Below, in pieces: positions 8,387 through 63,356 of a DNA stretch of 64,000 nucleotides. Position 1 is the first letter of the stretch. Each line of letters opens with the position of its first letter. The DNA is taken from the NCBI GenBank assembly GCA_964390545.1, contig CAYMJV010000002.1, positions 15,555 to 79,554 on the forward strand, read 5' to 3'. Made by a program: the position numbers and the translations under genes. This DNA comes from an uncultured Syntrophaceae bacterium (GTDB lineage: Bacteria; Desulfobacterota; BSN033; UBA1163). The notes beneath the pieces are model-generated. The model was not told the DNA's origin. It made no database searches and saw nothing but the letters and a program-made list of their open reading frames with translations.

Positions 8387-8401
8387 GGGAAAATCAGCTC
8401 A

Positions 8402-10215: not shown

Positions 10216-10249
10216 TAACTTTCTTCCACCTGCCTATTGAAGGTTGACG

Positions 10250-10672: not shown

Positions 10673-10716
10673 CTTCGATGAATTAGGATCTCTCGCGGAT
10701 ATCTTTTCTAAGAATA

Positions 10717-28949: not shown

Positions 28950-29714
28950 TCACTTGTTTAAATTCAAATACAAAGTGATGATCGCCTCTCCATAGAAGAG
29001 GGAAACAGCGGCCCCAAGGGAAAGAAAGGGTCCAAAGGGGATCGCATATTTCAAATCTTTCCCTTTGAGCATCATGACGATCACGCCGATGATGGATCCG
29101 ATGAGTGAACCTAAGAGAATGGTGAGGATTACGGCTTTCCAACCCAAGAAGGCCCCGATCATCGCCAGTAATTTGACATCCCCTCCACCCATCCCCTCCC
29201 TTTTGAACAACCACTGATAAAAAGTGGCAACCAGAAAAAGACTCCCTCCTCCCAAGAGAACCCCTATCAGAGAATTTAAAAATGTGAGTTGGGGAAGAAT
29301 GAACGAAGCGATGAGTCCAACACCTATCCCGGGCAGGCTGATCACATCAGGAATGATCTGGTGAAACAAGTCGATGACCGTAATGACAATTAAACTCGCT
29401 AGGAATGAGAAATAGAAAAGATAGCTCCAAGAAACCCCGAACCGGCTGAACAGAAGGAAGGAACTGAGGGCGGTCACCCCTTCCACAAGGGGATACTGCG
29501 AAGAGATAGGGCCTTGACAATAGCGACATTTTGCCCTGAGGAGGAGGTAGCTGACCAGAGGGATATTGTCATAAAAAGGAATTGAACGTTGACAATGAGG
29601 ACAATGAGAGCCCGGAAAGATGATCGATTCCCCCTTGGGGATTCGACAGATACAGACATTCAGGAAACTACCGACGATGGCCCCAAAAACAATTGAACCC
29701 ACGATCCACATCAA
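28950..29714 (-). CDS. pilD: Prepilin peptidase / N-methyltransferase PilD (A24 family)
   Basis: CPHCQ...CRYCQ zinc motif, multiple TM helices, and the active-site region GMGGGDVKLLAMIGAFLGW. Confidence 0.9.
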   Translation of the reverse strand: MMWIVGSIVFGAIVGSFLNVCICRIPKGESIIFPGSHCPHCQRSIPFYDNIPLVSYLLLRAKCRYCQGPISSQYPLVEGVTALSSFLLFSRFGVSWSYLFYFSFLASLIVITVIDLFHQIIPDVISLPGIGVGLIASFILPQLTFLNSLIGVLLGGGSLFLVATFYQWLFKREGMGGGDVKLLAMIGAFLGWKAVILTILLGSLIGSIIGVIVMMLKGKDLKYAIPFGPFLSLGAAVSLFYGEAIITLYLNLNK

Positions 29715-31697: not shown

Positions 31698-33654
31698 CCT
31701 GCTGATCCATGAAGATTCGAAACCAATTCTCTAAAAAGAGAAGAGACCAAATCTTTGCCGAATGGTCATAGCGTAAGGAGAGGTGCTCTTCCAGGAGTTG
31801 TTCGATGCCTTCTTTCCTGAAATATCCTCTCTGCAGCGCCTTCCGGTCCAAGAGGACATCGTAAACATAATTTTTTAGATCTTTTCTAATCCATCTTGAA
31901 ATGGGAACGCCGAATCCCATCTTTTTTCGCTTTGAAATAGCCGGTGGAAGAAAATCGGAAAAAGCTTTCTTGAGGATAAATTTGGCCCTGGATCCGTTTA
32001 GTTTGAATTGGGATGGAATTTGTGCGACCAATTCCATGAATTGATGATCCAGAAACGGAACGCGGGCCTCGAGAGAATTAGCCATGGTGGCAATATCCAT
32101 TTTGACGAGTAGATCCTCAGGAAGGTAGGAATGGATATCCAGATAAAGCAATTTATTTAAAGGATCTTCGGTTTCGCTTTCCTCGTATTTTTCTACTAAA
32201 TAACCAACGGGGTCGATGTGCATTAAGGTATGATCCATTTCTGGGGAATAAATTCCACTTCTCTCTTTGGCGTTGAAGATTTTGATCTGTTCTGCGTAAT
32301 TTCTAGCCTGGTTAGAAGATAACAATTCCAGAAAATCTGCCAGCCGATTGAATGTCTTCTCCCTCCAATGCAGGGAAGCCCCCATTCTGAGAATGGGCGG
32401 CATCCAGTCCTTTCTTACCTTTTCTGGAATTTTAGTAAACCAGGCAACCCACTTACTTCGAAGATATCTCGGATAACCTGCAAAATTCTCATCCCCGGCA
32501 TCTCCGGTGAGCACCACTTTCACGAAATCCTTTGTCATCTTCGCCACATAATAGGTGGGAATGGCTGACGAATCAGCGAACGGTTCGCTGTAGTACCATA
32601 CCAATTCAGGCAAAATCTCAATGGCATTCGGCCGCACCACAAATTCGTGATGTTCAGTCGAAAAATGTCTTGAAACAATTCTTGCGAACCCCAGCTCATC
32701 AAACTCTTTCTCTTCAAACCCTATGGAGAATGTTTTTACAGGTTGATGACTCAACTTCGACATGATCCCTACGACGAGACTGGAGTCCATCCCTCCGCTC
32801 AGAAAGGCCCCTACAGGGACATCGCTGATGAGTCTGAGTTTCACCGATTCTTCGAGCCCTGACCTGATTTGATCACCCCATTCATTCAAATCCGCTTTAT
32901 TCTTTTGAATCGGGGAAAAATCGAGGTCCCAGTATTTTTCTATCTTCACCTTTCCTGACAGATCATAGAGCAGGTAGTGGGCGGGAGGTAATTTCTTTAT
33001 CCCTTCGAAGATCGTAAGAGGAGACGGAACATATTGATAAGTCAAATAATGATGAAGCCCAACGAGGTTCACCTTTCGCTCGACCCCTGCTGCTTGAAGA
33101 ATTGCCCTTATCTCTGAGGCAAATAGAAAGCGACCTTTCCCCATCCAGTAAACCAAGGGTTTCTTGCCCAGCCTGTCTCGAGCCAGAAAAAGCCTTTTCC
33201 GCTTCAGATCCCAGATAGCAAAGGCGAACATCCCTCGAAAATATTTCAGGCACTCAACATCCCATTCTTCATAGGCATGAAGGATCACCTCTGTGTCAGA
33301 TCTTGATCTAAAAACATGTCCTTTTTCTTCTAACCCTTTCCTGACTTCTTGGAAATTATAAATCTCTCCGTTATAAACGATCCAAATCGTTCCATCCTCA
33401 TTACGCATGGGCTGATGCCCAGCTTCCGAGAGATCGATGATGGAGAGACGGCGGTGTCCCAACGCCACTTCAAAACCACCTTCATCTCGAGGGGGTCCTG
33501 ATGATTTGTTCACTTCAATGGTTCGACTCCCTCTTAGGAAGAGCATTCCTTCATCATCCGGCCCCCGATGTGCCAAGGCATCACACATCCTCTTGGTCAC
33601 TTCCACGGAGATGCGCTTATTGTCGAAATCGATCTCCCCACAGATCCCGCACAT
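31672..33654 (-). CDS. Asparagine-synthase-family glutamine amidotransferase, copy 1
   Basis: N-terminal MCGICG (Ntn Cys nucleophile), HRGPDD, and the PP-loop SGGMDSS. Confidence 0.85.
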   Translation of the reverse strand: MCGICGEIDFDNKRISVEVTKRMCDALAHRGPDDEGMLFLRGSRTIEVNKSSGPPRDEGGFEVALGHRRLSIIDLSEAGHQPMRNEDGTIWIVYNGEIYNFQEVRKGLEEKGHVFRSRSDTEVILHAYEEWDVECLKYFRGMFAFAIWDLKRKRLFLARDRLGKKPLVYWMGKGRFLFASEIRAILQAAGVERKVNLVGLHHYLTYQYVPSPLTIFEGIKKLPPAHYLLYDLSGKVKIEKYWDLDFSPIQKNKADLNEWGDQIRSGLEESVKLRLISDVPVGAFLSGGMDSSLVVGIMSKLSHQPVKTFSIGFEEKEFDELGFARIVSRHFSTEHHEFVVRPNAIEILPELVWYYSEPFADSSAIPTYYVAKMTKDFVKVVLTGDAGDENFAGYPRYLRSKWVAWFTKIPEKVRKDWMPPILRMGASLHWREKTFNRLADFLELLSSNQARNYAEQIKIFNAKERSGIYSPEMDHTLMHIDPVGYLVEKYEESETEDPLNKLLYLDIHSYLPEDLLVKMDIATMANSLEARVPFLDHQFMELVAQIPSQFKLNGSRAKFILKKAFSDFLPPAISKRKKMGFGVPISRWIRKDLKNYVYDVLLDRKALQRGYFRKEGIEQLLEEHLSLRYDHSAKIWSLLFLENWFRIFMDQQGDFKPHVI

Positions 33655-38921: not shown

Positions 38922-39610
38922 CGTCTTCTCCCGACAAATGAAAAAGAGTTAGCAGTCATTCGAAGCTTTTTTGAATTATCAATCAGGTAATCGAGATACT
39001 TCAAAAGACAAAACACATATCGTATCGAAATACGCCATAAGGCTTTCAGGTACTTTGTTGGAACAAATTGCTCAAAATATTCTAAAAGGAATACGGATAA
39101 AAATGATCCACCCCCTGATCCGACCTGTTCGAGAATGACATCAAATCTTCTTTCATCAAATAGGGAACGGATCCCTTTATCAGTGAATCTGAAATAATCG
39201 TGCTCGTCATGAATAACGTTCAAGAATGGTAGTTCCAAAACAACATATCCCCCAGAGTGGAGGACTCTAAATATCTCATCCGCAACGATCCATGGTTTTT
39301 TTACATGTTCAAGAACGGCAATGCTATAGACCACATCAAGGCATTCACTCTTGAAGGGTAGAAAATGGGCATCGGCAACGACATGGAGGTTCTTCTTGGA
39401 GAAAGAGATATCCAGATTAATCGTTTTGATGTTCTTTGAAAGATAGTGGTCGAACTGGCCAACACCCGAACCGAGATTTAAAACCCTTTTCCCTGGCCCA
39501 TTCTGGTTCATCCAGTCAAATAATTTCTGATTCCTCACCCTGGTATATGTGGGCTCAGGAAGCCATGCGTATATTCTATTGAACATCTTCTTGAGTCTCT
39601 CTTGAATCAT
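38918..39610 (-). CDS. Class I (type 11) SAM methyltransferase
   Basis: VLNLGSGVGQF...LPFKSECLDVVYSIAVLEHV. The start is taken at ATG 39610, which forms an ATGA overlap with the DegT stop. The track ORF starts at 39643. Confidence 0.7.
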   Translation of the reverse strand: MIQERLKKMFNRIYAWLPEPTYTRVRNQKLFDWMNQNGPGKRVLNLGSGVGQFDHYLSKNIKTINLDISFSKKNLHVVADAHFLPFKSECLDVVYSIAVLEHVKKPWIVADEIFRVLHSGGYVVLELPFLNVIHDEHDYFRFTDKGIRSLFDERRFDVILEQVGSGGGSFLSVFLLEYFEQFVPTKYLKALWRISIRYVFCLLKYLDYLIDNSKKLRMTANSFSFVGRRR

Positions 39611-40743
39611 AATTGGGAAATCACTTTTTTTAACACATCGCAAACGATCTTAACTTCTTCTTCGGATAGTTTAGGATACAAAGGAAGAGAGATCGTTCTG
39701 TTCCCTATCTCGTTCGCAATGGGAAAGTCTTCAGGCCTATATCCAAACTTCTCTTTGAAATATTTTAAAGTATGAACGGCCCTAAAGTTAACGGCACATC
39801 CGATGCCATTTTCCTCCATCTTTTCGATCACTTCATCTCTTGAAACTTCTCTTGGTAAGAGAACCGTAAAGAGGTGATGTCCGCTCCTTTCGTTTCCTTG
39901 AGGTCCTTCTATGAAATCGAGCCCCTCTACATCATTCAAAAGCTCACGATAAAGCACTTCAAGATCCTGACGCCGCTGCCTGTAATGATTCAACTTGTCA
40001 ATTTGATGGATAAGCAAAGCGGCCTGAATGTCGTCCATATTATATTTCCACCCCATGGTCTCCATATCCCAGTGCTCATATTTTTTCGTATAGCGATAGG
40101 AAGCATCTTTCGTGATGCCATGATGCCTGGCAGACCGATACCAGGAGGCATCTTCCGCAGATTTGCACACCAGAGCCCCCCCTTCTCCACAGGTCATGCT
40201 TTTCGTTGCATAGAAAGAGAAACAGGCAGCGTGGCTGAGCTGACCGGGTCTTACGCCATCCCTAAGTCCCTCGATGCAATGAGCAGCGTCTTCAATGAGG
40301 ATCAGATTATATTGTTGGGCTAACTCTGAAAAACCCAGTATGTCTGCCATGCGGCCAAATAAATGGACAGGCAAGATAGCCCTGGTTTTCTCCGTGAGGG
40401 CTGCTTTAACGGTCTCGGGCAAAATCATTCCACTTTTTGGACATACATCCACAAATACAGGGCTGGCCCCCGCTTGGAGGATGGCTGTGGCCGTGGCCAC
40501 AAAAGTCATAGGCGTCGTAATCACTTCATCCCCAGGACCAACTCCATGCCGGAGAAGGGCGAGATGGAGAGCCCCTGTGCAACTTGTCAAACCCACTGCT
40601 TCCGGGATGCTCAGATATTCAGCAAATATTTTTTCAAACTCCGCCACCTTAGGGCCGGTCGTGATGAAGATGGATTTCATCACCTCACCGGCGGCGGTGA
40701 TATCGCCTTCTGTGATATTATGTTTAAAAAATTCGATTTTCAT
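39607..40743 (-). CDS. DegT/DnrJ/EryC1-family PLP sugar aminotransferase
   Basis: 378 aa. FSFYATKSMTCGEGG (PLP lysine region) and the N-terminal DegT layout. Confidence 0.85.
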   Translation of the reverse strand: MKIEFFKHNITEGDITAAGEVMKSIFITTGPKVAEFEKIFAEYLSIPEAVGLTSCTGALHLALLRHGVGPGDEVITTPMTFVATATAILQAGASPVFVDVCPKSGMILPETVKAALTEKTRAILPVHLFGRMADILGFSELAQQYNLILIEDAAHCIEGLRDGVRPGQLSHAACFSFYATKSMTCGEGGALVCKSAEDASWYRSARHHGITKDASYRYTKKYEHWDMETMGWKYNMDDIQAALLIHQIDKLNHYRQRRQDLEVLYRELLNDVEGLDFIEGPQGNERSGHHLFTVLLPREVSRDEVIEKMEENGIGCAVNFRAVHTLKYFKEKFGYRPEDFPIANEIGNRTISLPLYPKLSEEEVKIVCDVLKKVISQL

Positions 40744-43318: not shown

Positions 43319-44377
43319 TTAATGTAATTCTTTTTTACCGCTCTTTGTGATAATCGGAATGCTCCTCATCCAGAGCTGCTTTTCCCACCATTTTCTATTT
43401 TCTCTGTACCATTTGATCGTTCTTGAAATTCCTTCCTCCCAGGAGACTTTGGGCTTCCAATTAAGGGATTGTTGGATCTTTCGAATATCACCCGTATGCC
43501 TGAAAACCTGTCCGGGACGGTCACCGACGAATTCAATGATTGAATCATCCTTGCCCATGAGCTTTATGATGTTCTGGGCGATCGAAAGAATAGACCGATG
43601 GACACCAGATGCCACATTGAAAACTTCCCCCTTCACTTTTTTGAGGTCAGCATGAAGAATGGCATCAATCGCGAGACAGAGATCTTCCACGAATATAAAA
43701 TCTCTGGATGGACTTCCGTCTCCATGGACACGAATGGGTTCGTTTAGAATGCAACTGGTGATAAATCTCGGAATGGCCTTCTCCAGGTGCTGATATGGGC
43801 CATAGTTGTTAAAAGGTCTGATAATCGTCACTGGGGCGTCATAGGTAGCCCAGTAAGAGTAAACAAGCCTGTCTGCCCCTGCTTTAGCAGAGGCATAAGG
43901 ACTCATAGGCAGTAAAGGGTGATTTTCGTCCATTTTATCTTTCATTGCTGTTCCGTAGACTTCAGAGGTGGAGATGTGAATAAATCTCTCCACCCGGTCC
44001 TTGTATTTCAAGACAGCATTCGCGACAGTCTGAGTCCCCAGGACATCCGTCTCGAAAAAAATGTAGTTATCATAAATAGAACGTGTCACATGGGTCTCTG
44101 CTGCAAAATGGACCACCACATCTGATTGGGAAACAAGGGTATCGACTAGTTCACCGTTTCTGACATTGCCATACCAGAAAACGAGGCGTTCCCCCTTATG
44201 TTCATTGATATTTACAGGCAAATTCTCCACATTTCCGGCATAGGTGAGCGTATCGAGTACAATGATCTTATACTGGGGGTACTTATGATAGACATATCTG
44301 ACAAAGTTACTCCCCATAAATCCGGCACCTCCAGTGACCAGCATTGTCCTTTCCATCTCCTCCATTCCCTCCTTCAC
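43319..44377 (-). CDS. rfbB: dTDP-glucose 4,6-dehydratase (extended SDR)
   Basis: VTGGAGFMGSNF, the catalytic YASAKAGADRL (YxxxK), and an RmlB-like C-terminus. Confidence 0.85.
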   Translation of the reverse strand: MKEGMEEMERTMLVTGGAGFMGSNFVRYVYHKYPQYKIIVLDTLTYAGNVENLPVNINEHKGERLVFWYGNVRNGELVDTLVSQSDVVVHFAAETHVTRSIYDNYIFFETDVLGTQTVANAVLKYKDRVERFIHISTSEVYGTAMKDKMDENHPLLPMSPYASAKAGADRLVYSYWATYDAPVTIIRPFNNYGPYQHLEKAIPRFITSCILNEPIRVHGDGSPSRDFIFVEDLCLAIDAILHADLKKVKGEVFNVASGVHRSILSIAQNIIKLMGKDDSIIEFVGDRPGQVFRHTGDIRKIQQSLNWKPKVSWEEGISRTIKWYRENRKWWEKQLWMRSIPIITKSGKKELH

Positions 44378-45063
44378 GTTTGTTGCATTAATATTAAAAG
44401 ACTTTTTTCCCCTTGGTTAAAAAGGAGATCAACCATAGAAAGGTTAGGGATAAAGTCTCCATAAAGCTGATCATAGATGGGATGGCGATAGTCCTGAAAG
44501 CTCACTCGAATCCCCTCTTTCGAAAATGCCTCCTCCCCGATATAGTTCTTGCCGGATGCCCCCTCATAGAATATATCGGCATTGAATTTCTTGCAGATCT
44601 TGATGAGCCTTTCGATTCTGTCACCGTTTACTCCAAGGGTCGAAGACTTTATGATCTTCTCTGTATCGATTCCTATCGCCTCAGCAATCTTGACGATGAA
44701 ATGCATATCGAGATCGATAAGATAATCCCAGTCCCTTCCATAAGCTTCTTCAAAAATGGATGAATAATGATGATAAAAAGGTGCCTTTGAGTAATTTTGC
44801 CTGATAGATAGAAGATGCTTTTTCCTCCAATTCACTTCATTATTGATCTTTACCTCGTTAATTAAAGTGTGTTCGTTAAACTTGATCAGCACAGGTACTG
44901 TCAGCCATTGAGCCCCATTGGGTGCTTTAATTTTGTTTCGATTCCGCCAACCGTGTTTGTCATATTGAACATCATCATAAATTACGAAAATATCACTACG
45001 GTGCATCTGCTCAAAGAAACCAAGCCAGGGAAGATAACCGGGTTGAAGAATCCCAACGATCAT
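44374..45063 (-). CDS. WbqC-family protein
   Basis: ILQPGYLPWLGFFEQMHRSDIFVIYDDVQYDKHGWRNRNKIK is the WbqC signature region. The start is taken at ATG 45063 (ATGA overlap). The track ORF starts at 45129. Confidence 0.75.
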   Translation of the reverse strand: MIVGILQPGYLPWLGFFEQMHRSDIFVIYDDVQYDKHGWRNRNKIKAPNGAQWLTVPVLIKFNEHTLINEVKINNEVNWRKKHLLSIRQNYSKAPFYHHYSSIFEEAYGRDWDYLIDLDMHFIVKIAEAIGIDTEKIIKSSTLGVNGDRIERLIKICKKFNADIFYEGASGKNYIGEEAFSKEGIRVSFQDYRHPIYDQLYGDFIPNLSMVDLLFNQGEKSLLILMQQT

Positions 45064-45881
45064 GCAATCTTCTCCTTCGAACAGAGATGCTGAAGGATGA
45101 TCTTTTGATAATAATAATATCCTTCCCAAGTCCCAATATCACAAGGCCTACCCTCCAGAAGAAATCCGTATAGTGGAAATTGATTCTTCAAGGTCTGGTA
45201 GGTCTTGAGGAAATCTACTTCTCCCGTCTCATGATTTATGAATTCTTCTGTCATATATTCGAGAGCATCCGGTAAAAAAACAGTTCTCCCAAAACCCCTT
45301 ATCTTTGAGGTTTGATCGGTTGAAATATCTTGAATTAAATAGTACTTTCCATCTCCCTTCCTATATTTGAAGGGTTTTGAACCCTTAAAAAAATCCATCT
45401 CCTTTTTTGGAATTTGTACCATGGAATTCCAAATTCCAAAGCCACTCTTGCAAACATCCAGCATCTGGCGAGTAGCCGATCGTTTAGACAGAAGAATTTG
45501 ATCGGGTATAGCCATAACAAAAGAGGTTCCTCTTATAAAATCCTTCGCTGTCCGAAGGGCATCTCCCAACCCAAGAGGGGCTTTTTGGTAAACGAATTCG
45601 AATTTTACGTCTTCATAAAGAACTCGTCTTGAATGAAGGTATTCTCGAATCACCTCTTTTTCTTTCCTAATGACAACGCATATCCTTTTTATACCCGAGG
45701 AAACAAGTTCTGCGATTGTATGTTCGATGACTGGAAGAGATCCTAAAGGAAACATCTCTTTGGGGATGAATGTCGTTAAAGGCCTCATTCTTGAACCGTA
45801 TCCTGCTGCCGGAACCACAGCTGTCTCAATCTCCTCCATCCTGGCATCTTTAATTGACATACCAATCGTTTTCCCTATCAT
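45060..45881 (-). CDS. Sugar-1-phosphate nucleotidyltransferase (GalU/RmlA-like)
   Basis: VVPAAGYGSRMRPLTTFIPKEMFPL (GxGtRxxPxT...K motif). Confidence 0.8.
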   Translation of the reverse strand: MIGKTIGMSIKDARMEEIETAVVPAAGYGSRMRPLTTFIPKEMFPLGSLPVIEHTIAELVSSGIKRICVVIRKEKEVIREYLHSRRVLYEDVKFEFVYQKAPLGLGDALRTAKDFIRGTSFVMAIPDQILLSKRSATRQMLDVCKSGFGIWNSMVQIPKKEMDFFKGSKPFKYRKGDGKYYLIQDISTDQTSKIRGFGRTVFLPDALEYMTEEFINHETGEVDFLKTYQTLKNQFPLYGFLLEGRPCDIGTWEGYYYYQKIILQHLCSKEKIA

Positions 45882-45902: not shown

Positions 45903-46934
45903 TTAGGTGTCGGTGATGCTTCCCTCTATTTCTTCTAAATCCAATGCCTTAATTTTTTTGGTTCTTTTCTCTTCCGCTTTTGTAACGATCTTCCAATAAT
46001 TGTGTTTCCAAGAGCGATATTGCCAATCCGGGCAATTTCTGCAGGGTTCTATCTCTTGCCCTTTCCGGGACAGATGCATTTGGCGATAGTATTCGAATTC
46101 CTCCCCGTGCCAGATTTCTTTAATACTCTTTTCATGAATGTTCCCCATATCTGTTTTTGCTGCGATATCAAAACCGCAAACCATCACCTTACCTCTTGAA
46201 TCAATGTTTAATCTTTCAAAGATAAAGGGGCATGGGATCATCTCTGCGGGGGACAGATAGGGTGTTGGATCTGCTGATTTGGAAGGATCATTGATACCCC
46301 AAGTGAGATATTTTCTTTTCTGAAAGTTATCCACAATGGGTTCCCAGAATTTTGCGACGGCATCGATATCAACATCCACCTGGTTGATACCACTAGCGAT
46401 GATTTTCGACGAGCTTTTTAGACGATTCCTCAGCTCAACCATTCTTTTGACATTCTTTAGTAATTCATTCCATTTTAGACCTCTCCTCACTTTCGCATAT
46501 GTTTTGGGGCCCCCGGCATCCACGCTGAACTCTATCATATCAATTTGCGCTTCAAGCAATCTGGTACTGCTCTCTTCTGTGAATAATGAACCATTAGTGA
46601 TCAAACCTACTTTGGCTCCGACTTTCTTTGCATACTCCATCAATTCCACTGCCTTAGGGTGCAACATCGGTTCGCCTCCCCCTGATATTCTCACCCAGGC
46701 ACCATATTTCCCACATTGGTCTGCAATGATTCGAAAAGTATTCTCCTCCATAAACGGTCGATCTTTATAATCCGTCCTGATTTGAGAATTGGTGTAAGGG
46801 CAATTAGGGCATTTGGCATTACAAACATACACAAATGAAAGAACGGACATCATCGGAAATTCTTGAGCCTGCGACTTGATACCGTATCTTTTCAGTTTGT
46901 GAATTATTTTCTTATCCTTTTTCATAGCGTGCAT
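45903..46934 (-). CDS. Radical SAM enzyme with Cys-rich C-terminal (SPASM/twitch-like) extension, copy 1
   Basis: CNAKCPNC (Cx3Cx2C). C-terminal CPFIFERLNIDSRGKVMVC ... CRNC. Confidence 0.75.
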   Translation of the reverse strand: MHAMKKDKKIIHKLKRYGIKSQAQEFPMMSVLSFVYVCNAKCPNCPYTNSQIRTDYKDRPFMEENTFRIIADQCGKYGAWVRISGGGEPMLHPKAVELMEYAKKVGAKVGLITNGSLFTEESSTRLLEAQIDMIEFSVDAGGPKTYAKVRRGLKWNELLKNVKRMVELRNRLKSSSKIIASGINQVDVDIDAVAKFWEPIVDNFQKRKYLTWGINDPSKSADPTPYLSPAEMIPCPFIFERLNIDSRGKVMVCGFDIAAKTDMGNIHEKSIKEIWHGEEFEYYRQMHLSRKGQEIEPCRNCPDWQYRSWKHNYWKIVTKAEEKRTKKIKALDLEEIEGSITDT

Positions 46935-47392
46935 CTCGGAGGAATTTCTTTTCTGAAAATGACACCCTTTTTACTTTCCTCCTCAAAGACTCTTAAAGAT
47001 TCGCCCTCCATCATATATCCATTTTTCTGAAATGTACTTTTGGCCAACTGATTATCAAACAATACCCATGCCCAAACACTCTTTAAGCTTTTTTCTTTTG
47101 CTACCCGTTCGATGATCCCTAAAAGTTTATTCCCTATCCCTTGATTCGGATATTTTACGAAAAAGGCTATCTCACCGTTTCGGTTGAGATAGAGGATGAC
47201 GACGCCCAGCAAGTCAGAGTCTACTACAATACCCCTCGCTTCTATGTTACTACACTTGAGCCATTCTTTTGTTTCTGCTGCATTGACCGGCTTTGTCAAA
47301 AGGAGCTCGCTGTAGCGATTCCTTAAAGATAGATATTGTTCAATAAATCCTTCCTCCTCTTTCAAATCGATAATTCTCTCCATCTTACCCAA
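46922..47392 (-). CDS. GNAT-family N-acetyltransferase
   Basis: 156 aa. Acetyl-CoA motif A region (PNQGIGNKLLGIIERVAKE). Confidence 0.7.
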   Translation of the reverse strand: MGKMERIIDLKEEEGFIEQYLSLRNRYSELLLTKPVNAAETKEWLKCSNIEARGIVVDSDLLGVVILYLNRNGEIAFFVKYPNQGIGNKLLGIIERVAKEKSLKSVWAWVLFDNQLAKSTFQKNGYMMEGESLRVFEEESKKGVIFRKEIPPRCTL

Positions 47393-49247
47393 AATACCTC
47401 TCCCACCACACCTGAAACATCATCAGGTTCCAAACCTTGGCAGCGTTACTTTTCTTGCCAGCGTAATAATCATCCAAAATATATTTTACGTAATGCACAT
47501 CAAAAAAGTGATGAGTTTTGAGTCGGTTTTCTGATAGGGTATCGAAACTATAAGGTTTGAGCTTATCAACCATCCAGTCGAAGATGGGTAAAACAAATCC
47601 CTCCTTTGGCCTTTCTGCAATTCCATGTGGGAGTAAGTGCCAGACGGTTCTTTTTAATATATCTTTCACAATTCCGTTTCTTATTTTCATATAACCGGGA
47701 ATTGTTGAAACAAATTCGACAAGCCTATAATCGAGGAAAGGAGAGCGAATTTCTACAGAATGAGCCATCGATAAAAAGTCTATAAAAGCGAGCACTTGAT
47801 CGGGGAGTTGGGTGTTCCATTCCATTTCGAGCATTCGATTGAGAGGATCCTTTGAGGTGGTCTGATTAAAATTTTCAGCGAAAAGGGAGAAAGAGCTAGG
47901 GTGGTCTATATTTGATCTAAAATCGGGGGTTAAAAGTAAATCCTTTTCCTCATCACTGAATACCCCCAGTTGATATCGCCACTTAACGTCATCGCCTCCT
48001 GATTTCTTATCGAGATCCGTTAAGAAATCGATATCACATGGTTTCAGGAGATCCCTCTCCTCTTCCGTTAAAGTCCCCCTCTGTATCTTTCTCGATAGCC
48101 TTTTGAAATGATGCATCGGTTGAGCAAGCCTATGAGAGAGATAACTGCCGAAAAGTTCATCAGCAGCATCTCCAGAAAGTGCGACCTTCACATGTTTCGT
48201 GATCAATTTCGTAAGAAAATATGTGGAGATGGTCCCTGAAAAAGGTTGGTCAAAGGCGACGATGACCTTTCCTATTTCATCCAATAATTCTTTGTAAGGC
48301 ATGATATATTCATGATGATCTGTCTTATATGCCTTTGCCACCCTACGCGCGTAATATAAATCTGCTTCCTTATTCCTTAATTCGTCTTCATACCCGAGGG
48401 AGAACGTTTTGATAGGCTTATTTGTAAACTTTGTCATTAATGCAACAATCGAACTTGAGTCCACACCACCGCTCAAATAGGCGCCAAATGGTACATCGCT
48501 AATCATCCGGACCCGAATGGCATCTTCCAGCAATTCCAATATTTTCTCTTTGAGAACAGCTTCGTCCTGATCTTCTTTTTTAACGAATCGGATTTTCCAC
48601 CATCTCTTTTTAGAAATCTCTGTCTTCGAAAAGGTTAATATCTCCCCGGGGACAAGGGAATAAATATTTTTGAAAGCAGTGAGAGGTGATGGAACATTCT
48701 TAAAGGTAAAGTAATGGTAGATGGCTTCGCAATTAATGTCCCGTTGATACTCGGGATGTTCCAAAATGGCCTTAATCTCAGAACCAAATATGAGATGGTT
48801 ATTGGCAACGGTATAGAAAAGGGGTTTTACCCCCATCCGATCTCTGATCAGCAAAAGTTTATTCTTTCCTGAATCCCACAAAGCAATGACAAACATACCG
48901 TTCATTTTATGGACAAAGTCATCGCCATATTCTTCGTAGAGATGAACAATCACCTCTGTGTCAGAATGGTCCGTATAAAATGTGTGCCCTTGTCCTAGCA
49001 GCTCTTTTCTTAATTTCTGGAAATTATAAATCTCTCCGTTAAAGACTACCCAAAGAGTTCGGTCCTCGTTATGCACGGGCTGATGGCCTGTCTCGAGATC
49101 TATAATACTTAGTCTTCTGATGCCGAGATTCATGTTTCCATCCGAATAAAATCCTTCTTCATCCGGACCACGGTGAAAGATCGCGTCCGTCATCCTCTTC
49201 AATACGATTTCGTTCGGGGGTCCCGAAAAACCACAAATGCCGCACAT
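47385..49247 (-). CDS. Asparagine-synthase-family glutamine amidotransferase, copy 2
   Basis: MCGICG, HRGPDE, and the PP-loop SGGVDSS. Confidence 0.85.
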   Translation of the reverse strand: MCGICGFSGPPNEIVLKRMTDAIFHRGPDEEGFYSDGNMNLGIRRLSIIDLETGHQPVHNEDRTLWVVFNGEIYNFQKLRKELLGQGHTFYTDHSDTEVIVHLYEEYGDDFVHKMNGMFVIALWDSGKNKLLLIRDRMGVKPLFYTVANNHLIFGSEIKAILEHPEYQRDINCEAIYHYFTFKNVPSPLTAFKNIYSLVPGEILTFSKTEISKKRWWKIRFVKKEDQDEAVLKEKILELLEDAIRVRMISDVPFGAYLSGGVDSSSIVALMTKFTNKPIKTFSLGYEDELRNKEADLYYARRVAKAYKTDHHEYIMPYKELLDEIGKVIVAFDQPFSGTISTYFLTKLITKHVKVALSGDAADELFGSYLSHRLAQPMHHFKRLSRKIQRGTLTEEERDLLKPCDIDFLTDLDKKSGGDDVKWRYQLGVFSDEEKDLLLTPDFRSNIDHPSSFSLFAENFNQTTSKDPLNRMLEMEWNTQLPDQVLAFIDFLSMAHSVEIRSPFLDYRLVEFVSTIPGYMKIRNGIVKDILKRTVWHLLPHGIAERPKEGFVLPIFDWMVDKLKPYSFDTLSENRLKTHHFFDVHYVKYILDDYYAGKKSNAAKVWNLMMFQVWWERYFG

Positions 49248-49248
49248 G

Positions 49249-50187
49249 TCAGGTATTTAATAAATAATAATCTGCTCTTGCCGCCTGCCAGTCCCTGCAA
49301 TCCCTGCAATTCTCTGGGAGGGCATGAAATTGTTTAAGAAGATGGAACTGCCTTAGCTCTTTTAACTTTCCGTTCCACACTTCCTTAAGAGATTGATGGT
49401 TGATATCCCCGGCAATAAATTTTGCATCCAAATCGACTGCACAGGTGACCACCTTCCCTGTATCAGTAATCGACATGGTTCGCATGGCCCAGTAGCAGGG
49501 CCAACGCTCTACACCGCCAATAACTAAGTTGGGAGCATCGACGAGTCCTGCCCAGCTGACCATAGGCCGAATTTTTACGACAGCTCCTTGCTGATTCCAG
49601 AATTGAATAAAGTCTTCTTTTTCATTTTGGTTGATGTCCATTTCAACAAACTGCACAAACACCTCGGGTTTCTCCGAGTTCATCAATTTTTTGAGCTTCA
49701 TTAATTGCGCGGTATTCTGAACCACTTTTTCATAATTTCCACCCACTCGAATCTTTGCATACGTGTCAGGTTTAAAGGCGTCGATGCCGATATAGATGGC
49801 ATCCAGACCTGAACAAATCAGTCTCTCTGCTGCAGATTTGCCTAACAAATTTGCATTCGAATTCAGAACCACATCTCTTAAACCCTCACGTTTTGCATAA
49901 GCGATCATGTCAAAGATGGTTGGTTTTTTTCTTTTTAATAATAGGGCCTCTCCGAAGAAGACCATCCAAACTCTTACGCTCTTGTCCACTTTAGCGATTT
50001 CGTTTATGATTTTTATAAAAAGGTCCCACGAAATAATGCCTTTTTGCCTTTTCATTTCTTTGTGCACACACATGGAACATTTGAGGTTGCAGTAGCTAAT
50101 CGTATCGATGAGAACGACTTTAGGAAAATCGCCTGCATCTTCAAGCCTGCCTTGTTTCTTTTGAACTTCTAAAACTTTGTTCTCCAT
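49249..50187 (-). CDS. Radical SAM enzyme with Cys-rich C-terminal extension, copy 2 (paralog of 45903..46934)
   Basis: CNLKCSMC (Cx3Cx2C). C-terminal CYWAMRTMSITDTGKVVTC ... CRDC. Colinear with copy 1. Confidence 0.75.
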   Translation of the reverse strand: MENKVLEVQKKQGRLEDAGDFPKVVLIDTISYCNLKCSMCVHKEMKRQKGIISWDLFIKIINEIAKVDKSVRVWMVFFGEALLLKRKKPTIFDMIAYAKREGLRDVVLNSNANLLGKSAAERLICSGLDAIYIGIDAFKPDTYAKIRVGGNYEKVVQNTAQLMKLKKLMNSEKPEVFVQFVEMDINQNEKEDFIQFWNQQGAVVKIRPMVSWAGLVDAPNLVIGGVERWPCYWAMRTMSITDTGKVVTCAVDLDAKFIAGDINHQSLKEVWNGKLKELRQFHLLKQFHALPENCRDCRDWQAARADYYLLNT

Positions 50188-50212: not shown

Positions 50213-51241
50213 TCAAAGCGCTTTATTAAAAACATCTGGTCGAACCTCTCGAAGTTCCAGCTTTTTAAGAATATTCACAATTCTCTTTGCGGACTTTCCA
50301 TCCCAAAACTCTGGCGTTCCGCCTTTTTTCCAATTTCCTGATAAAATCAAATCCATCCTATCGTCAATATTCCCCATGGATACTAATTCATTCGTTCCCT
50401 GAGTAATGGTAATTGGCCGTTCTATAGTAGTCCTTAGTATGAGGCAGGGGACATTTAAATAGGTTGTTTCTTCTTGTATCCCACCAGAATCTGTGAGGAC
50501 AAACTTCGAGTATTTTCCACGGGTAATGAATTCTTTATAACGGAGTGGTTCCAAAACTTTGAAATCTCTATTAGAAGCGAAGCCTGCGTCAAATCCATTT
50601 ATATTTTTCTTTGTTCTCGGGTGAGCGGGGAAAAAAACTGGTATTCTGAGAGAAAGGGTATTCAAAAAATTCATAATCCTCCAAAGATCATTCTTATCAT
50701 CGACATTCGAAGGCCTGTGAAGGGTGACCAAAATAAAATGGTTTCTTTGTAAACCGAATTTCTGAAAAACCTTATCTTCATAGGATGGATCAATCCTTTT
50801 TAAAATTGAGATTAAAGAATCGATCATGATATTCCCAACAAAATGGATTCTATTTCTTTCGACTCCCTCCCGAATAGGATTTTCATCTCCATCTTTCGAT
50901 GGAGTAAAAAGGATATCCGAAATGGAATCGGTCACTTTCCGGTTGATTTCTTCGGGCATGGTCATATCAAAACTCCGAAGCCCGGCTTCCACATGGGCCA
51001 CTGGAATGGAGAGTTTCTTAGCTGTCACACTGCAAGCGAGGGTTGAATTCACATCACCAAAGACCACTACCAGGTCAGGATTTTCATTTTGAATCACTCG
51101 CTCAAAATCGATCATTATCTTCCCTGTTTGTTCTGCGTGGGTTCCAGACCCGACCCCCCAAAAGTAATGCGCCTCAGGTAAGTCCAGGTCTTCAAACAAT
51201 TCTTTGGACATTTCATAATCATAATGTTGACCGGTGTGCAA
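50213..51241 (-). CDS. wecB: UDP-N-acetylglucosamine 2-epimerase homolog lacking the N-terminal ~35 aa (possible pseudogene)
   Basis: Begins (TTG) at ...HTGQHYDYEMS. VAHVEAGLRS and MPEEINR motifs are present. The GTRPE-type first beta-alpha unit is absent, and an in-frame TAG lies 8 codons upstream, only 17 nt after the preceding gene. Confidence 0.7.
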   Translation of the reverse strand: MHTGQHYDYEMSKELFEDLDLPEAHYFWGVGSGTHAEQTGKIMIDFERVIQNENPDLVVVFGDVNSTLACSVTAKKLSIPVAHVEAGLRSFDMTMPEEINRKVTDSISDILFTPSKDGDENPIREGVERNRIHFVGNIMIDSLISILKRIDPSYEDKVFQKFGLQRNHFILVTLHRPSNVDDKNDLWRIMNFLNTLSLRIPVFFPAHPRTKKNINGFDAGFASNRDFKVLEPLRYKEFITRGKYSKFVLTDSGGIQEETTYLNVPCLILRTTIERPITITQGTNELVSMGNIDDRMDLILSGNWKKGGTPEFWDGKSAKRIVNILKKLELREVRPDVFNKAL

Positions 51242-51282
51242 GATAATGGGGGTGAAATGTTTATTCTAGCCCCTCAAAATTC

Positions 51283-55884: not shown

Positions 55885-56322
55885 CTATTTAAGCCATCTA
55901 TTGGCATATTGGCTCGTCTTCGTTCCATCCTGGTTGATCGCGAGCCATCCGTCCGTTGCCTGACTCCCTATAGCTGTTGCCTGTGCGGTAAATGCAGTAC
56001 CGCTCAGAGCCGTAAAACTCCAGGTATAGTAATTGCTTACTGTTGTTGCTGGGGCTCCCATCGTAACTCGAAGTTTCGTTACCGCCGTTCCAAGCCCATC
56101 ATCGACGGCATAATTTCCCTTTTCTGCTCTCCACATCTCTTGGGCTGCCCTGACTTGTTCCAATGCAGTCTTGGCATCGGCCCTCCTTGCCCTTATCATA
56201 TAATTTGAGTACGTGGGGACTGCAATGGCTGCAAGAATTCCAACAATAAGAATCACCATAAGGAGCTCAATCAGAGTGAGCCCTCTAATTGATTTCTTCC
56301 TCCGGATTCTAAACATTTGCAT
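55885..56322 (-). CDS. PilE-like type IV pilin
   Basis: MQMFRIRRKKSIRG/LTLIELLMVILIVGILAAIAVPTYSNYMIRARRADAKTALEQ. The ATG at 56322 is preceded by GGAGAG. The longer track ORF (to 56484) overlaps the upstream pilin and is unlikely. Confidence 0.8.
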   Translation of the reverse strand: MQMFRIRRKKSIRGLTLIELLMVILIVGILAAIAVPTYSNYMIRARRADAKTALEQVRAAQEMWRAEKGNYAVDDGLGTAVTKLRVTMGAPATTVSNYYTWSFTALSGTAFTAQATAIGSQATDGWLAINQDGTKTSQYANRWLK

Positions 56323-56435
56323 GACAACTCTCCTTATTTTGGGGGAATCAATAATAGGTTCGGAAACCCTGAAAATGCGGCCATTGAACGAACTCTCTTT
56401 GCCACCTTCGGGGATTGTCCATTCCCACTTAGGTG

Positions 56436-56900
56436 TTAATACTTCTGCCCCGGGCGGTAGGCATAAGGAATTGTTCCACCCCATCTCCAGTTGATCGCAC
56501 CATCCGTAGTTATAATAGGACTCAATACGAAGGTTTGATTGTCCACCGTGCTCTCATTCGTATTGGTCGCTGTGAAAGTGATCACTCCACCACCGGCAGA
56601 AAGGTTGATTGCAGAGATATATTTTCCATCCGGAACCACAGGCACAGACACACCCAATGTCGACTTGACTGCTGCTGTCGTGGAAAGAGCCGTCCCGGGA
56701 AAAGTCCCTTCATCCTGGTAATAGGCCGCCACCCCACTCGCCATATGGCTCATGCTGTTTGTTACCTCTGTGAGTTTTGCTTTAACTGTCTGAGCCCTGT
56801 ACATTGGGACTGCAATGCTTGCCAGGATGCCGATGATCGCAATCACGATCAACAACTCAATCAATGTAAAGCCCAATTCCCGTCTTTTCCTTGGCATCAT
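56436..56900 (-). CDS. Type IVa pilin, paralog 2 (about 75% identical to the major pilin by eye)
   Basis: [53 protein letters not shown]. Cysteine-free. Confidence 0.85.
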   Translation of the reverse strand: MMPRKRRELGFTLIELLIVIAIIGILASIAVPMYRAQTVKAKLTEVTNSMSHMASGVAAYYQDEGTFPGTALSTTAAVKSTLGVSVPVVPDGKYISAINLSAGGGVITFTATNTNESTVDNQTFVLSPIITTDGAINWRWGGTIPYAYRPGQKY

Positions 56901-56909
56901 TTAAGACTC

Positions 56910-57016
56910 CTAGGCCTCTCGACGGCAAACCCTATAGACAGGGAGTGCTACAAAGGCAAAGAGCGACATAACAGTCATGAAAACTACAAGCTCAATCAAA
57001 GTGCGAAGCCTTTTCT
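56910..57016 (-). pseudogene. Frameshifted relic of a pilin 5' end
   Basis: The minus strand encodes ...KGF in one frame, and after a 2-nt insertion TLIELVVFMTVMSLFAFVALPVYR in another. T2-L-I-E5, P22 and Y24 have exactly the spacing seen in the neighbouring pilins. There is no start codon, and the stop comes after about 35 codons. Confidence 0.55.
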
Positions 57017-57082
57017 TTCCGAGGAGAATACCGTCTGGATCTCAATAAGACCTTGCTTGAACCATCGTAGTTTGAAATCAAG

Positions 57083-57134
57083 AAAACCTCGGGCAATCCT
57101 TGCTGGCTTCCAAGCAAGGATTGCCCGAGGTTTT
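57083..57134 (-). terminator. Strong intrinsic terminator after the major pilin gene
   Basis: Perfect 22-bp inverted repeat AAAACCTCGGGCAATCCTTGCT / AGCAAGGATTGCCCGAGGTTTT with an 8-nt loop, 19 nt after the stop. On the minus strand it is followed by UUUUCUUGAUUU. Confidence 0.85.
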
Positions 57135-57152
57135 TAGGTTAGCATCAAACGA

Positions 57153-57608
57153 TTACTTCTTCGGACGATAGGCCGCCGGGATTGTTCCAGCCCAGAACCA
57201 GTTGATTGCACCGTCCGTCGATACGACAGGACTCATTACGTAAGTTGAGCCGTCCACCGTACTCTCACCCGTATTGGTCGCTGTGAAAGTGATGACCCCA
57301 CCACCAGCAGATATGTTGACTGCAGAAATGTATTTCCCATCCGGAACCACAGGGATAGCCACACCTAAGGTTGTCTTAATTGTTCCGGTCGCAATAAGAG
57401 CGACCTGAGGAAAGGTACCCTCATCCTGGTAAAAGGCCGCTACCGCACTCGCCACATTACTCATGCTGTTCGATACTTCTGTGAGCTTTGCTTTGACCGT
57501 CTGAGCCCTGTACATCGGGATGGCGATCGCTGCAAGGATACCGATGATGGCGATAACGATCAACAACTCAATCAATGTAAAACCTTTCTGTCCTCTCATT
57601 CTTAACAT
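57153..57608 (-). CDS. pilA: Major type IVa pilin
   Basis: [47 protein letters not shown]. Monocistronic, lying between a sigma-54 promoter and a strong terminator. Cysteine-free. Confidence 0.85.
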
Positions 57609-61442: not shown

Positions 61443-63356
61443 TCAAAAAATGGGATGATAACGATTCGCCCAGAGCTCCCACACGAGAAGGGTCCAGAGT
61501 TGTTTTCGATTATCCTTCTTGTTGGCAAGATGATCCTGGAGAAGACAAGTGACATAATCAGGATTGAGAAACCCTTCCTGTTTGATTCGGTCGTAAGAAA
61601 GCAGATCCCCGAACAATTCTCTCAATGGTCCCTTCACCCATTTGGCTATGGGGACGCCAAATCCTTTCTTTTTCCTGTTGATAACCTCCCTCGGGAGGAA
61701 ATCTTTCATCACCTTTTTCAAAAGATACTTTGAAGTGAATCGTCTCAACTTTAATGAAGATGGAAGGTTCATGACGAATTCCACTAGTTCATAATCGAGG
61801 AAGGGCGCCCTCACTTCCAGCGAACACGCCATGCTGGCCCGGTCCACTTTGACAAGGATGTCGTCTTGGAGATAGAGCTTCAAGTCCAAGTATTGCAGCA
61901 GAGTGGTTTTATCCTCCAAGGGGAATCCCCTTTGGTAACCATCGACCTCTTCCGTGATTTGAACTGGATCGACTTGGGAGCTTAATTCAGAAGATAAAAC
62001 TCTCTTTATTTCCGGAAATGGAAAGGAACCGAGCCAGATAAAGTTCCGGATGCTTTCGGAGTAACCAATGCCAGAAAGAAATTTTTTTACCTTAAAATCA
62101 AAACTAATGTTATCGTCGGAAACAGGAAGCAAATTCCCCAAAAAGCTGAGAATTGGACGTGAATGGGTTAGAAAAAACTCATACTGCCTCGCCATTTGAT
62201 GTGCCAGGTAGGTGGGATATCCGGCGAAAAGTTCATCCCCTCCATCTCCGCCAAGGGCGACAGTCACATGTTGACGGGTAAATTTCGAGAGAAGATAGGT
62301 TGGTAAGATAGACGCATCTGCCATAGGTTCATCTAAAATGTCAGGTAACTGGGGCACCAGATGAAGGAGATCTGCTGGTTTCATGACCTGCTGGTGATGG
62401 TCTGTTTTCAGATATTTCGATGCGAAAGAGGCATGGGTCGATTCATCGAAAGAGGGATCTTCAAAACCAATGGAAAATGTTCTTACCTTCCCGGGAACCT
62501 CTTCCTGAGCAAAGGCGGTAATCGCACTCGAATCGATTCCTCCACTTAAGAAAACTCCCAATGGGACATCACTGATGAGCCTCCTTCTAACGGATTGCCT
62601 TAGAAGTTCCAATATCTTCGCTTCGATTTCGCCCTCTGACAATTGTTCTCCTACCTTTCCAGAATCGAAAGGGAACCAGTATTCACTCACTTTGATCCCA
62701 TCCTTTTCCAAAATGAGATAGGAAGCAGGAGGAAGTTTGTTAGCTTCCTTAAAGATCGTATGAGGACTCGGGATATATTCAAAGAAAAGATACTTCGCAA
62801 AAGAAAGAGGATTGATCTGTCTTGAGAAATTGGGATAAGCGATAAGGGCTTTCAGTTCTGACGCAAAAAGAAAATTCCCTTTGACGAAACTGTAATAGAG
62901 AGGTTTCTTCCCCAGCCGGTCTCTCGCAAGGAGGAGTCGCCTTCTTGTCTCATCCCAAATTCCGATGGCAAACATTCCATTGAAATGGCGGAAACATCTC
63001 TCCCCATACTCCTCATAGGCATGGACGATGACCTCGGTATCCGAGTTTGTCCTAAACTGATGCCCCAAGGCGTTCAAACGACTCCTCAATTCTAAGAAGT
63101 TATAAATTTCTCCATTGAAAATCACCCATACCGTTTTATTCTCATTTGAAAGCGGTTGATGTCCACTGGCCAGATCAATAATGCTTAATCGACGGTGCCC
63201 CATGTAGACAAAAGGGCCTCCCTCGTCTAAGGACCGAACGAATTCCCCCTGATCATCTGGCCCCCGATGCGTCAGGAGATCACGCATGGACCGGAGCTCC
63301 CCAAGATCAGGAATATCTGCAACCCTTCGGGTGAGGAATCCTAAAATGCCGCACAT
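61443..63356 (-). CDS. Asparagine-synthase-family glutamine amidotransferase, copy 3
   Basis: MCGILG, HRGPDD, and the PP-loop SGGIDSS. Confidence 0.85.
   Translation of the reverse strand: MCGILGFLTRRVADIPDLGELRSMRDLLTHRGPDDQGEFVRSLDEGGPFVYMGHRRLSIIDLASGHQPLSNENKTVWVIFNGEIYNFLELRSRLNALGHQFRTNSDTEVIVHAYEEYGERCFRHFNGMFAIGIWDETRRRLLLARDRLGKKPLYYSFVKGNFLFASELKALIAYPNFSRQINPLSFAKYLFFEYIPSPHTIFKEANKLPPASYLILEKDGIKVSEYWFPFDSGKVGEQLSEGEIEAKILELLRQSVRRRLISDVPLGVFLSGGIDSSAITAFAQEEVPGKVRTFSIGFEDPSFDESTHASFASKYLKTDHHQQVMKPADLLHLVPQLPDILDEPMADASILPTYLLSKFTRQHVTVALGGDGGDELFAGYPTYLAHQMARQYEFFLTHSRPILSFLGNLLPVSDDNISFDFKVKKFLSGIGYSESIRNFIWLGSFPFPEIKRVLSSELSSQVDPVQITEEVDGYQRGFPLEDKTTLLQYLDLKLYLQDDILVKVDRASMACSLEVRAPFLDYELVEFVMNLPSSLKLRRFTSKYLLKKVMKDFLPREVINRKKKGFGVPIAKWVKGPLRELFGDLLSYDRIKQEGFLNPDYVTCLLQDHLANKKDNRKQLWTLLVWELWANRYHPIF

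Follow-up and report, generated by a model that had tools for sequence, protein, structure and literature searches.

Gene content of the locus

We analysed a 64,000-nucleotide (nt) stretch of DNA from an uncultured Syntrophaceae bacterium (GenBank assembly GCA_964390545.1, contig CAYMJV010000002.1, positions 15,555 to 79,554 of the forward strand), referred to as the window. Our focus was a block of four open reading frames (ORFs) encoding two radical S-adenosylmethionine (rSAM) proteins, termed rSAM-A and rSAM-B, a GNAT N-acyltransferase and an AsnB-type glutamine amidotransferase (Table 1). A previous sequence-only reading had described these genes as a sub-cluster inside a sugar locus. Their minus-strand coordinates were exactly as it gave them, and the junctions it had reported were reproduced, namely a 13-nt overlap between the rSAM-A and GNAT genes, an 8-nt overlap between the GNAT and AsnB genes and a 1-nt gap between the AsnB and rSAM-B genes. 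Pfam also confirmed its domain calls (Radical_SAM, SPASM, Acetyltransf_1, GATase_6/7 and Asn_synthase), the sugar-locus context was correct, and the proposed paralogy of the two rSAM proteins was borne out (26% identity over 311 residues, E = 1e-35). That reading overlooked the larger conserved cassette to which the four genes belong. Dozens of genomes, drawn from many phyla, show them in identical order, so the arrangement is not a product of chance. The true functional unit exceeds positions 45903-50187, extending at least to the short-chain dehydrogenase/reductase (SDR) gene at 43319 and probably to the DegT gene at 39607. The four genes are most likely the core of a horizontally mobile cassette of six to eight genes for nucleotide-sugar tailoring.

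Table 1 Features of the cassette and its upstream neighbour, in order of position in the window (aa, amino acids; PLP, pyridoxal phosphate)
Feature	Position	Strand	Remarks
DegT/ArnB/PseC-like PLP sugar aminotransferase	39607..40743	-	378 aa; PF01041 364 bits
RmlB-like SDR, TSE replacing catalytic TDE	43319..44377	-	273 bits to dTDP-glucose 4,6-dehydratase 6bi4
WbqC-family protein	44374..45063	-	229 aa from internal Met; PF08889
Sugar-1-phosphate nucleotidyltransferase-like protein, optional cassette member	45060..45881	-	273 aa; Pfam NTP_transferase
rSAM-A: radical SAM with single-cluster twitch domain (predicted)	45903..46934	-	343 aa; Pfam Radical_SAM and SPASM
GNAT N-acyltransferase, variable position 'slot X'	46922..47392	-	156 aa; Acetyltransf_1
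AsnB-type glutamine amidotransferase/adenylating synthetase	47385..49247	-	620 aa; cassette-specific ortholog group
rSAM-B: radical SAM with single-cluster twitch domain (predicted)	49249..50187	-	312 aa; Pfam Radical_SAM and SPASM
WecB-type UDP-GlcNAc 2-epimerase, probable 5'-truncated remnant	50213..51265	-	Epimerase_2/TIGR00236 match from profile position 34

Two radical SAM proteins of the twitch type

Both rSAM proteins belong to the radical SAM superfamily (PF04055, 63 and 51 bits against a cutoff of 29.5) and carry further cysteines in their C-terminal regions. The cysteines of rSAM-A are arranged as C38-x3-C42-x2-C45, C235-x17-C253 and C298-x2-C301, and those of rSAM-B as C33-x3-C37-x2-C40, C231-x17-C249 and C294-x2-C297. 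The Cx3Cx2C and CxxC motifs of the sequence-only reading were therefore present, whilst the auxiliary spacing was x17 in both copies rather than x17/18, giving a shared C-terminal pattern of C-x12-G-x4-C followed by C-x2-C. Conservation was assessed in alignments of 32 rSAM-A and 37 rSAM-B orthologs (lowest identities 44-49%). In rSAM-A, C38, C42, C45, C235, C253, C298 and C301 were invariant, and rSAM-B had exactly seven invariant cysteines, down to 44% identity. C74 of rSAM-A was kept in 30 of the 32 orthologs and was Ser in the other two, and its candidacy as a strictly needed hydrogen donor of an epimerase was thus rejected.

The best match in the PDB for both proteins, and the only real match for the rSAM-B profile, was BtrN, a twitch enzyme whose single auxiliary cluster has four Cys ligands and which performs a two-electron oxidation of a secondary alcohol on an aminocyclitol (PMC9012708). 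The four auxiliary cysteines of each rSAM protein aligned residue for residue with C169, C187, C232 and C235 of BtrN. The seven-Cys signature of a full SPASM domain (CX2CX5CX3C plus a downstream Cys) was absent from both, as only four cysteines beyond the core were conserved and no Cys occurred at the x5 or x3 positions after CxxC. Because the four invariant auxiliary cysteines align with the BtrN ligands, both proteins are one-cluster twitch enzymes and not two-cluster SPASM maturases. The auxiliary-cluster-like extension described earlier can thus be refined: by their sequence motifs, both proteins are BtrN-type twitch enzymes with one predicted, fully Cys-ligated auxiliary [4Fe-4S] site.

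Neither protein reached the cutoff of any NCBIfam family (best scores 110 and 91 bits against a cutoff of 380), the families missed by both including TIGR04317 (W_rSAM_matur), TIGR04321 (spiroSPASM), TIGR04311, NF033640 (N_Twi_rSAM) and TIGR04466 (BlsE). Their orthologs are named simply 'radical SAM protein' in public records, and our literature searches turned up no description of the cassette or of its product and chemistry. The two proteins fall into no known sugar-modifying family, in agreement with the uncharacterised status given to them previously. The C-methylation suggested in that reading is, by inference, the least likely of the chemistries it proposed, given that both rSAM proteins lack a B12 domain and that separate B12-rSAM genes adjoin the cassette in eight loci.

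Orthologs of rSAM-B, 44-96% identical to the window copy, occurred in many phyla, and an exhaustive profile search placed 1,205 representative clusters (50% identity) in the wider family at E <= 1e-30. These relatives include fusions to family 2 glycosyltransferases (GT2), to a hexapeptide acyltransferase and to GNAT, as well as tandem rSAM-rSAM proteins. Two distant relatives, P0414 (784 aa) and P0492 (726 aa), hold at least two complete rSAM-plus-twitch modules per polypeptide, each module with its own CX3CX2C, C-x12-G-x4-C and CxxC.

Conservation and distribution of the cassette

Homolog searches with the two rSAM proteins each returned hundreds of orthologs at 70-96% identity, and the two match lists shared contigs. 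Gene neighbourhoods were drawn from metagenome contigs and 80 genome loci (designated by L numbers), with matches in 321 species representatives, and were compared by tblastn together with all-against-all clustering of 42 loci. The recurrent order, with optional members in parentheses, was (DegT), rSAM-B, AsnB, slot X, rSAM-A, (NTP-transferase), WbqC, SDR, (DegT), (GT2), (B12-rSAM), (flippase-like). This order was found in about 36 of the 42 analysable loci, spread over more than 10 phyla. By gene family, the rSAM genes occurred in 40 of the 42 loci, AsnB in 38, WbqC and the SDR in 36 each, DegT in 32 and GT2 in 18, where it comes after the SDR gene. Wherever DegT was carried it adjoined either rSAM-B or the SDR. 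It was the gene directly upstream of rSAM-B in seven full loci, as also in L063 and L065, two minimal loci that lack the SDR. Flippase-like genes were present in some loci, and an ArnT-like PMT_2 glycosyltransferase of the GT-C type in L069 and L077. The cassette was found in Wzx-type loci (the window and L004) and also beside Wzm/Wzt ABC-2 exporters.

Hosts included Thermodesulfobacteriota, Nitrospirota, Omnitrophota, Planctomycetota, Elusimicrobia, Bacillota, Patescibacteria, Bacteroidota, Melainabacteria and several proteobacterial classes. Nearly all were metagenome-assembled genomes (MAGs), the sole isolate being Fundidesulfovibrio agrisoli SG106 (L069).

Some loci departed from the common arrangement. 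In a Desulfobacterales MAG (L008, 3049-9735), a third twitch rSAM, a methyltransferase, an SDR, an ATP-grasp ligase and a metallophosphoesterase lie between AsnB and rSAM-A, and a 472-aa radical SAM protein follows rSAM-A. Minimal variants from Gastranaerophilales and Mailhella (L063, 7778-13246; L065, 7774-12651; also L061, L072 and L075) hold a GT2 or a WecF-like GT56, DegT, an rSAM-B-like gene, hexapeptide acyltransferases or a second twitch rSAM, and WbqC; AsnB and the RmlB-like SDR were not detected within 10 kb in these variants.

A further group consisted of stand-alone rSAM-B-like genes, which group together as a single derived clade within the cassette family and for which AsnB, rSAM-A, WbqC and the SDR were not found within 10 kb. 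They occurred in UBP9, Burkholderiales, Selenomonadaceae, Dormibacterota, Eremiobacterota and Vulcanimicrobiota (L019, L020, L021, L025, L030, L032, L033, L038, L039, L040, L045 and L048), with the match near 10001-10940 (1651-2547 in L039). COX1/COX2-like genes lie near four of these loci. A link to selenocysteine was considered and rejected, as L021 was the only locus with selA and selB directly upstream of its rSAM-B-like gene.

The acyltransferase slot and the partner genes

The window's slot-X protein is a GNAT (Acetyltransf_1, 27 bits against a cutoff of 20.7). Across the loci, slot X was occupied by a GNAT (of two types), an N-formyltransferase of the Fmt/ArnA type or a formyltransferase-GNAT fusion, and in one case by a methyltransferase. 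The slot-X formyltransferase matched the N-terminal domain of ArnA with 148 bits. Formyltransferase-GNAT fusions were seen in L049 (12794-14137, 447 aa) and L056 (8910-10001, 363 aa), and suggest two acylation sites; in L004, the GNAT is fused to rSAM-A (8385-9875, 496 aa, P0170). As an N-acyl capping enzyme fills slot X in nearly all loci, an intermediate with a free amine is implied. An apparent fusion of rSAM-A to WbqC in L013 (a 601-aa ORF) was discarded as an artefact that masked N letters at about 14300-14400 create, a caution for automated fusion detection in this collection.

Downstream of rSAM-A, the NTP-transferase had the N-terminal part of GalU as its best NCBIfam match, and occupied the equivalent position in L004, L011, L059 and L081. 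Its gene overlaps that of the WbqC-family protein by 4 nt. The latter is a clear member of its family (264.6 bits to PF08889, cutoff 21.3); its true start is an internal Met, as its homologs have a length of 229 aa and span 91% of the long ORF. The family is called uncharacterised in the literature. An AlphaFold2 model with a mean predicted local distance difference test (pLDDT) score of 92.8 was obtained for WbqC. No solved relative was found by sequence and no PDB fold match reached E < 0.001 (best E = 0.08), so no function could be inferred. The top fold matches, none of them significant, were all nucleotide-binding (HUP-class) folds.

Of all the proteins compared, RmlB is by far the closest to the SDR (273 bits, against 108 for UXS). 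It carries STSEVYG where three RmlB structures have STDEVYG, and it fell short of the RmlB family model (TIGR01181, 351.5 bits against a cutoff of 365.1). TSE or SSE was found in all 36 cassette copies of the SDR and YxxxK was present, whilst extra RmlB paralogs in L015 (6464-7624) and L024 (2566-3765) kept the canonical TDE. In RmlB, the Asp of the TDE motif acts as general acid when the C6 hydroxyl is lost; TSE occurs in GMD and is typical of the UXS/ArnA decarboxylases. With TSE in place of TDE, the cassette SDR may catalyse 4,6-dehydration as an enzyme of another type, or may be a mere 4-oxidase. The DegT protein had ArnB as its best PDB match (6.5e-69), and its NCBIfam matches to PseC and ArnB lay below their cutoffs.

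All genes from a MarR_EPS regulator (TIGR04176, 52440-53069) through DegT lie on the minus strand with gaps of at most 41 nt, so a gene for a precursor peptide would not fit into the operon. The regulator gene overlaps the downstream GT4 gene by 34 nt. The WecB-type gene between this GT4 gene and rSAM-B lacks about 33 N-terminal profile residues and is preceded by an in-frame stop codon (51266-51268) that sits 41 nt past the end of the GT4 gene; it is probably a 5'-truncated remnant or pseudogene. It was absent from the cassette in the other loci compared and is not a conserved member. Genes for type IV pilins (ComP_DUS and Pilin, both bearing an N_methyl motif) and for a prepilin peptidase flank the glycan locus, at 55885-57608 and 28950-29714.

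The AsnB-type amidotransferase

The AsnB protein is a class II glutamine amidotransferase of the AsnB family (TIGR01536, 474 bits against a cutoff of 267; Pfam GATase_7, 156 bits, and Asn_synthase, 301 bits). As stated previously, its nucleophile is intact (the protein starts with MCGICG), and the PP-loop reads SGGVDSS. Its best NCBIfam match was the XrtA/PEP-CTERM amidotransferase TIGR03108, for which it remained below the cutoff (515.6 against 816.9 bits), and its nearest solved relative was a hydroxyamidotransferase (7ylz), followed by E. coli AsnB. The protein was 42-74% identical to its cassette orthologs and 35-38% identical to the two other AsnB paralogs of the window. The three window genes (31672-33654, 47385-49247 and 61443-63356) encode proteins that are mutually 35-41% identical, and all three keep the Cys nucleophile and the SGGxDSS PP-loop. 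Their number suggests that the glycan is heavily amidated or that amidation has several targets.

The earlier reading had pointed to the conversion of uronic acid to uronamide by AsnB homologs of O-antigen loci, such as WbpS. In a tblastn search with an E. coli Ugd query, Ugd was not found in the window, and only weak partial matches were obtained in the full-cassette loci L015 and L046. A uronamide role for the cassette AsnB is possible but lacks support from co-localisation. The domains, the paralogy, the sugar context and the uncharacterised nature of the rSAM proteins were as the earlier interpretation had them.

Proposed pathway and rival explanations

The sequence-only reading had left open whether the rSAM proteins act on a nucleotide sugar or on a protein. 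The conserved partners (the RmlB-like SDR, DegT, NTP-transferase, formyltransferase and GT2) are sugar-nucleotide enzymes. This synteny, the fusions found among relatives and the lack of room for a precursor peptide favour a nucleotide-sugar substrate over a peptide or protein. We consider it probable, with some reserve, that the genes form a nucleotide-sugar tailoring cassette whose predicted twitch rSAM enzymes act on the sugar. The product would most likely be a modified N-formylated or N-acetylated amino sugar destined for a surface glycan.

In such a pathway, the SDR and DegT would place an amine on a nucleoside diphosphate hexose, which the slot-X enzyme would cap with an acetyl or formyl group. 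Each rSAM enzyme would take a hydrogen atom from a carbon of the sugar ring. rSAM-B may be a secondary-alcohol dehydrogenase in the style of BtrN/BtrS, making a keto group for a (second) transamination; it is read as an alcohol dehydrogenase because it has no spare conserved Cys and often stands directly after DegT. By analogy with BtrN, this role for rSAM-B, feeding the DegT aminotransferase, is possible but doubtful. rSAM-A would carry out a second hydrogen abstraction from a ring carbon, leading to oxidation or epimerisation. AsnB would adenylate a carboxylate on the intermediate and convert it to a carboxamide with ammonia from glutamine. Finally, GT2, sometimes with flippase-like and ArnT-like proteins, would pass the sugar to the glycan or to a lipid carrier. 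We tentatively propose, at somewhat less than even confidence, that two consecutive rSAM steps on a nucleotide sugar give a sugar undescribed in any glycan, such as a diamino, C-branched or ring-rearranged hexose that bears a carboxamide or amidine.

Several observations weigh against a ring-modifying sugar pathway. AsnB requires a carboxylate for which the pathway offers no source, with Ugd not co-localised. Even the first step of the pathway is uncertain because the SDR lacks the catalytic Asp of RmlB. WbqC is as conserved as the rSAM proteins and yet has no assigned fold or function. Both rSAM proteins are only remotely similar to BtrN (E = 1e-7 to 1e-9, with some 25% identity across partial regions), which falls short of orthology to this 2-deoxy-scyllo-inosamine (DOIA) dehydrogenase, and there were no aminoglycoside genes among the conserved neighbours. 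The AlphaFold2 model of rSAM-B was poor (16-sequence alignment, pLDDT of 60, below 50 in the auxiliary domain), and Foldseek returned only generic rSAM cores for it, with BtrN at rank 28; this model was not used for classification. Lastly, the stand-alone rSAM-B-like genes, about a dozen in number and 60-67% identical to the window copy, occur apart from the cassette.

The alternative that survives best, though we think it unlikely, is that the cassette builds an N-acyl side chain derived from an amino acid or dicarboxylate, and not a modified sugar ring. WbqC or AsnB would attach a carboxylate-bearing acyl group to a 4-amino sugar, the GNAT or formyltransferase would cap the side-chain amine, AsnB would amidate the free carboxyl, and the two rSAM enzymes would epimerise or oxidise side-chain carbons. 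This would make sense of an AsnB that retains everything needed for carboxylate adenylation and glutamine hydrolysis in a pathway where the sugar itself has no obvious carboxylate; the two distinct acylation sites implied by the formyltransferase-GNAT fusions and the ATP-grasp ligase inserted into the L008 cassette point the same way. The founding WbqC presumably belongs to the locus of E. coli O121, an O-antigen that contains Qui4N(N-acetylglycyl). However, the conserved core holds neither an amino-acid-activating enzyme nor a carrier protein, the closest rSAM relative, BtrN, acts on a cyclitol ring, and the cysteine pattern (Cys74 of rSAM-A not strict, no spare Cys in rSAM-B) argues against Cys-dependent C-alpha epimerases.

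We give still less credence to an amidine (acetimidoyl or formimidoyl) sugar, in which slot X would N-acylate the amine, WbqC and/or AsnB would turn the amide into an amidine with ATP and ammonia, and the rSAM enzymes would perform unrelated ring tailoring. The near-constant N-acyl capping enzyme of slot X would fit this scheme, as would the glutaminase and PP-loop ATP-pyrophosphatase domains of AsnB and the nucleotide-binding character of the weak WbqC fold matches; these matches were, however, non-significant, and we know of no AsnB-family enzyme that makes amidines. PtmG (Cj1324) is presumably a member of the WbqC family. This protein has been reported as the CMP-Leg5Am7Ac acetamidino synthase.

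Least credible by far is that the rSAM proteins are peptide, protein or metallocofactor maturases (classical SPASM or the TIGR04317 tungsten-enzyme type) merely located in a sugar locus: both match the Pfam SPASM model and their top NCBIfam matches are W_rSAM_matur, spiroSPASM and rSAM_Geo_metal, but those matches reach 75-110 bits where the cutoffs are 250-400 and fall mainly on the generic core, four auxiliary cysteines are conserved rather than seven, a precursor gene has no intergenic room, relatives are fused to GT2 and sugar acyltransferases, and neither a tungsten or molybdenum enzyme nor a conserved small ORF was among the neighbours shared by the 42 loci. Features of RiPP (ribosomally synthesised, post-translationally modified peptide) systems (precursor, peptidase, exporter or other transporter) were likewise not among the conserved neighbours, although a RiPP recognition element was not specifically searched for.

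Comparison with known systems

The nucleotide-sugar cassette resembles several characterised systems. BtrN, the DOIA dehydrogenase of butirosin biosynthesis (PDB 4M7S/4M7T) and the closest solved relative of the window proteins, has the same combination of an rSAM core and a C-terminal twitch domain, and it acts on a carbohydrate-like ring, not on a peptide. BtrN works with the DegT-family aminotransferase BtrS, and the cassette likewise pairs a twitch rSAM with a DegT-family enzyme. The window rSAM proteins differ from BtrN in being 60-90 residues longer and in occurring as two paralogs instead of one. Their genes also belong to a locus for a cell-surface glycan, together with those for an SDR, AsnB and WbqC, instead of to an aminoglycoside cluster, and their substrate is presumably nucleotide-activated.

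DesII, BlsE and AbmM similarly abstract a hydrogen atom from a sugar carbon in (nucleotide-)sugar pathways. BlsE was a weak sequence match for rSAM-A, and all three were among the fold matches of a low-confidence model, so that the likeness holds at the level of the generic rSAM core only. NeoN, HygY and SpeY are twitch epimerases and dehydrogenases that act on sugars. Unlike the cassette proteins, all six are enzymes of secondary (antibiotic) metabolism, and to our knowledge none is paired with AsnB and WbqC.

The Arn pathway of lipid A modification with L-Ara4N (ArnA, ArnB, ArnC and ArnT) shows a different set of parallels. The cassette DegT is nearest to ArnB and the slot-X formyltransferase is ArnA-like; the SDR has the TSE motif, GT2 follows it in the 18 loci noted above, and L069 and L077 hold the ArnT-like GT-C protein. 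In contrast, the cassette SDR is nearer to RmlB than to UXS, Ugd is not co-localised, and the Arn pathway has no rSAM, AsnB or WbqC component.

Lastly, AsnB shares its two-domain architecture, Cys nucleophile and PP-loop with amidotransferases of polysaccharide loci (TIGR03108 and WbpS types), and the window also carries the MarR_EPS regulator and two further AsnB paralogs. The cassette AsnB differs from both types in that it forms a separate group of orthologs linked to the rSAM pair, and there is no evidence of a uronic acid substrate. Judged from sequence, the cassette thus stands outside the BtrN/BtrS, antibiotic sugar rSAM and Arn families despite its likeness to each, and places twitch rSAM enzymes that putatively act on a sugar in a pathway context that is new.

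Significance

Nearly all characterised rSAM enzymes with sugar substrates are from antibiotic pathways, whereas here a pair occurs in surface-glycan loci. The cassette is carried by at least 321 species representatives across many phyla, mostly anaerobic and uncultured, and its presence in the cultured F. agrisoli SG106 makes it experimentally tractable. Solving it would assign functions to two rSAM subfamilies, a subgroup of AsnB, the WbqC family and the TSE-type RmlB-like SDR, and would probably reveal a new monosaccharide together with an oxygen-independent route to it. Should the cassette indeed make an undescribed sugar, its rSAM proteins would be the first shown in nucleotide-sugar biosynthesis for the primary cell envelope (lipopolysaccharide, exopolysaccharide or S-layer), and the orphan WbqC family and the Asp-less RmlB-like SDR subfamily would each gain a function.

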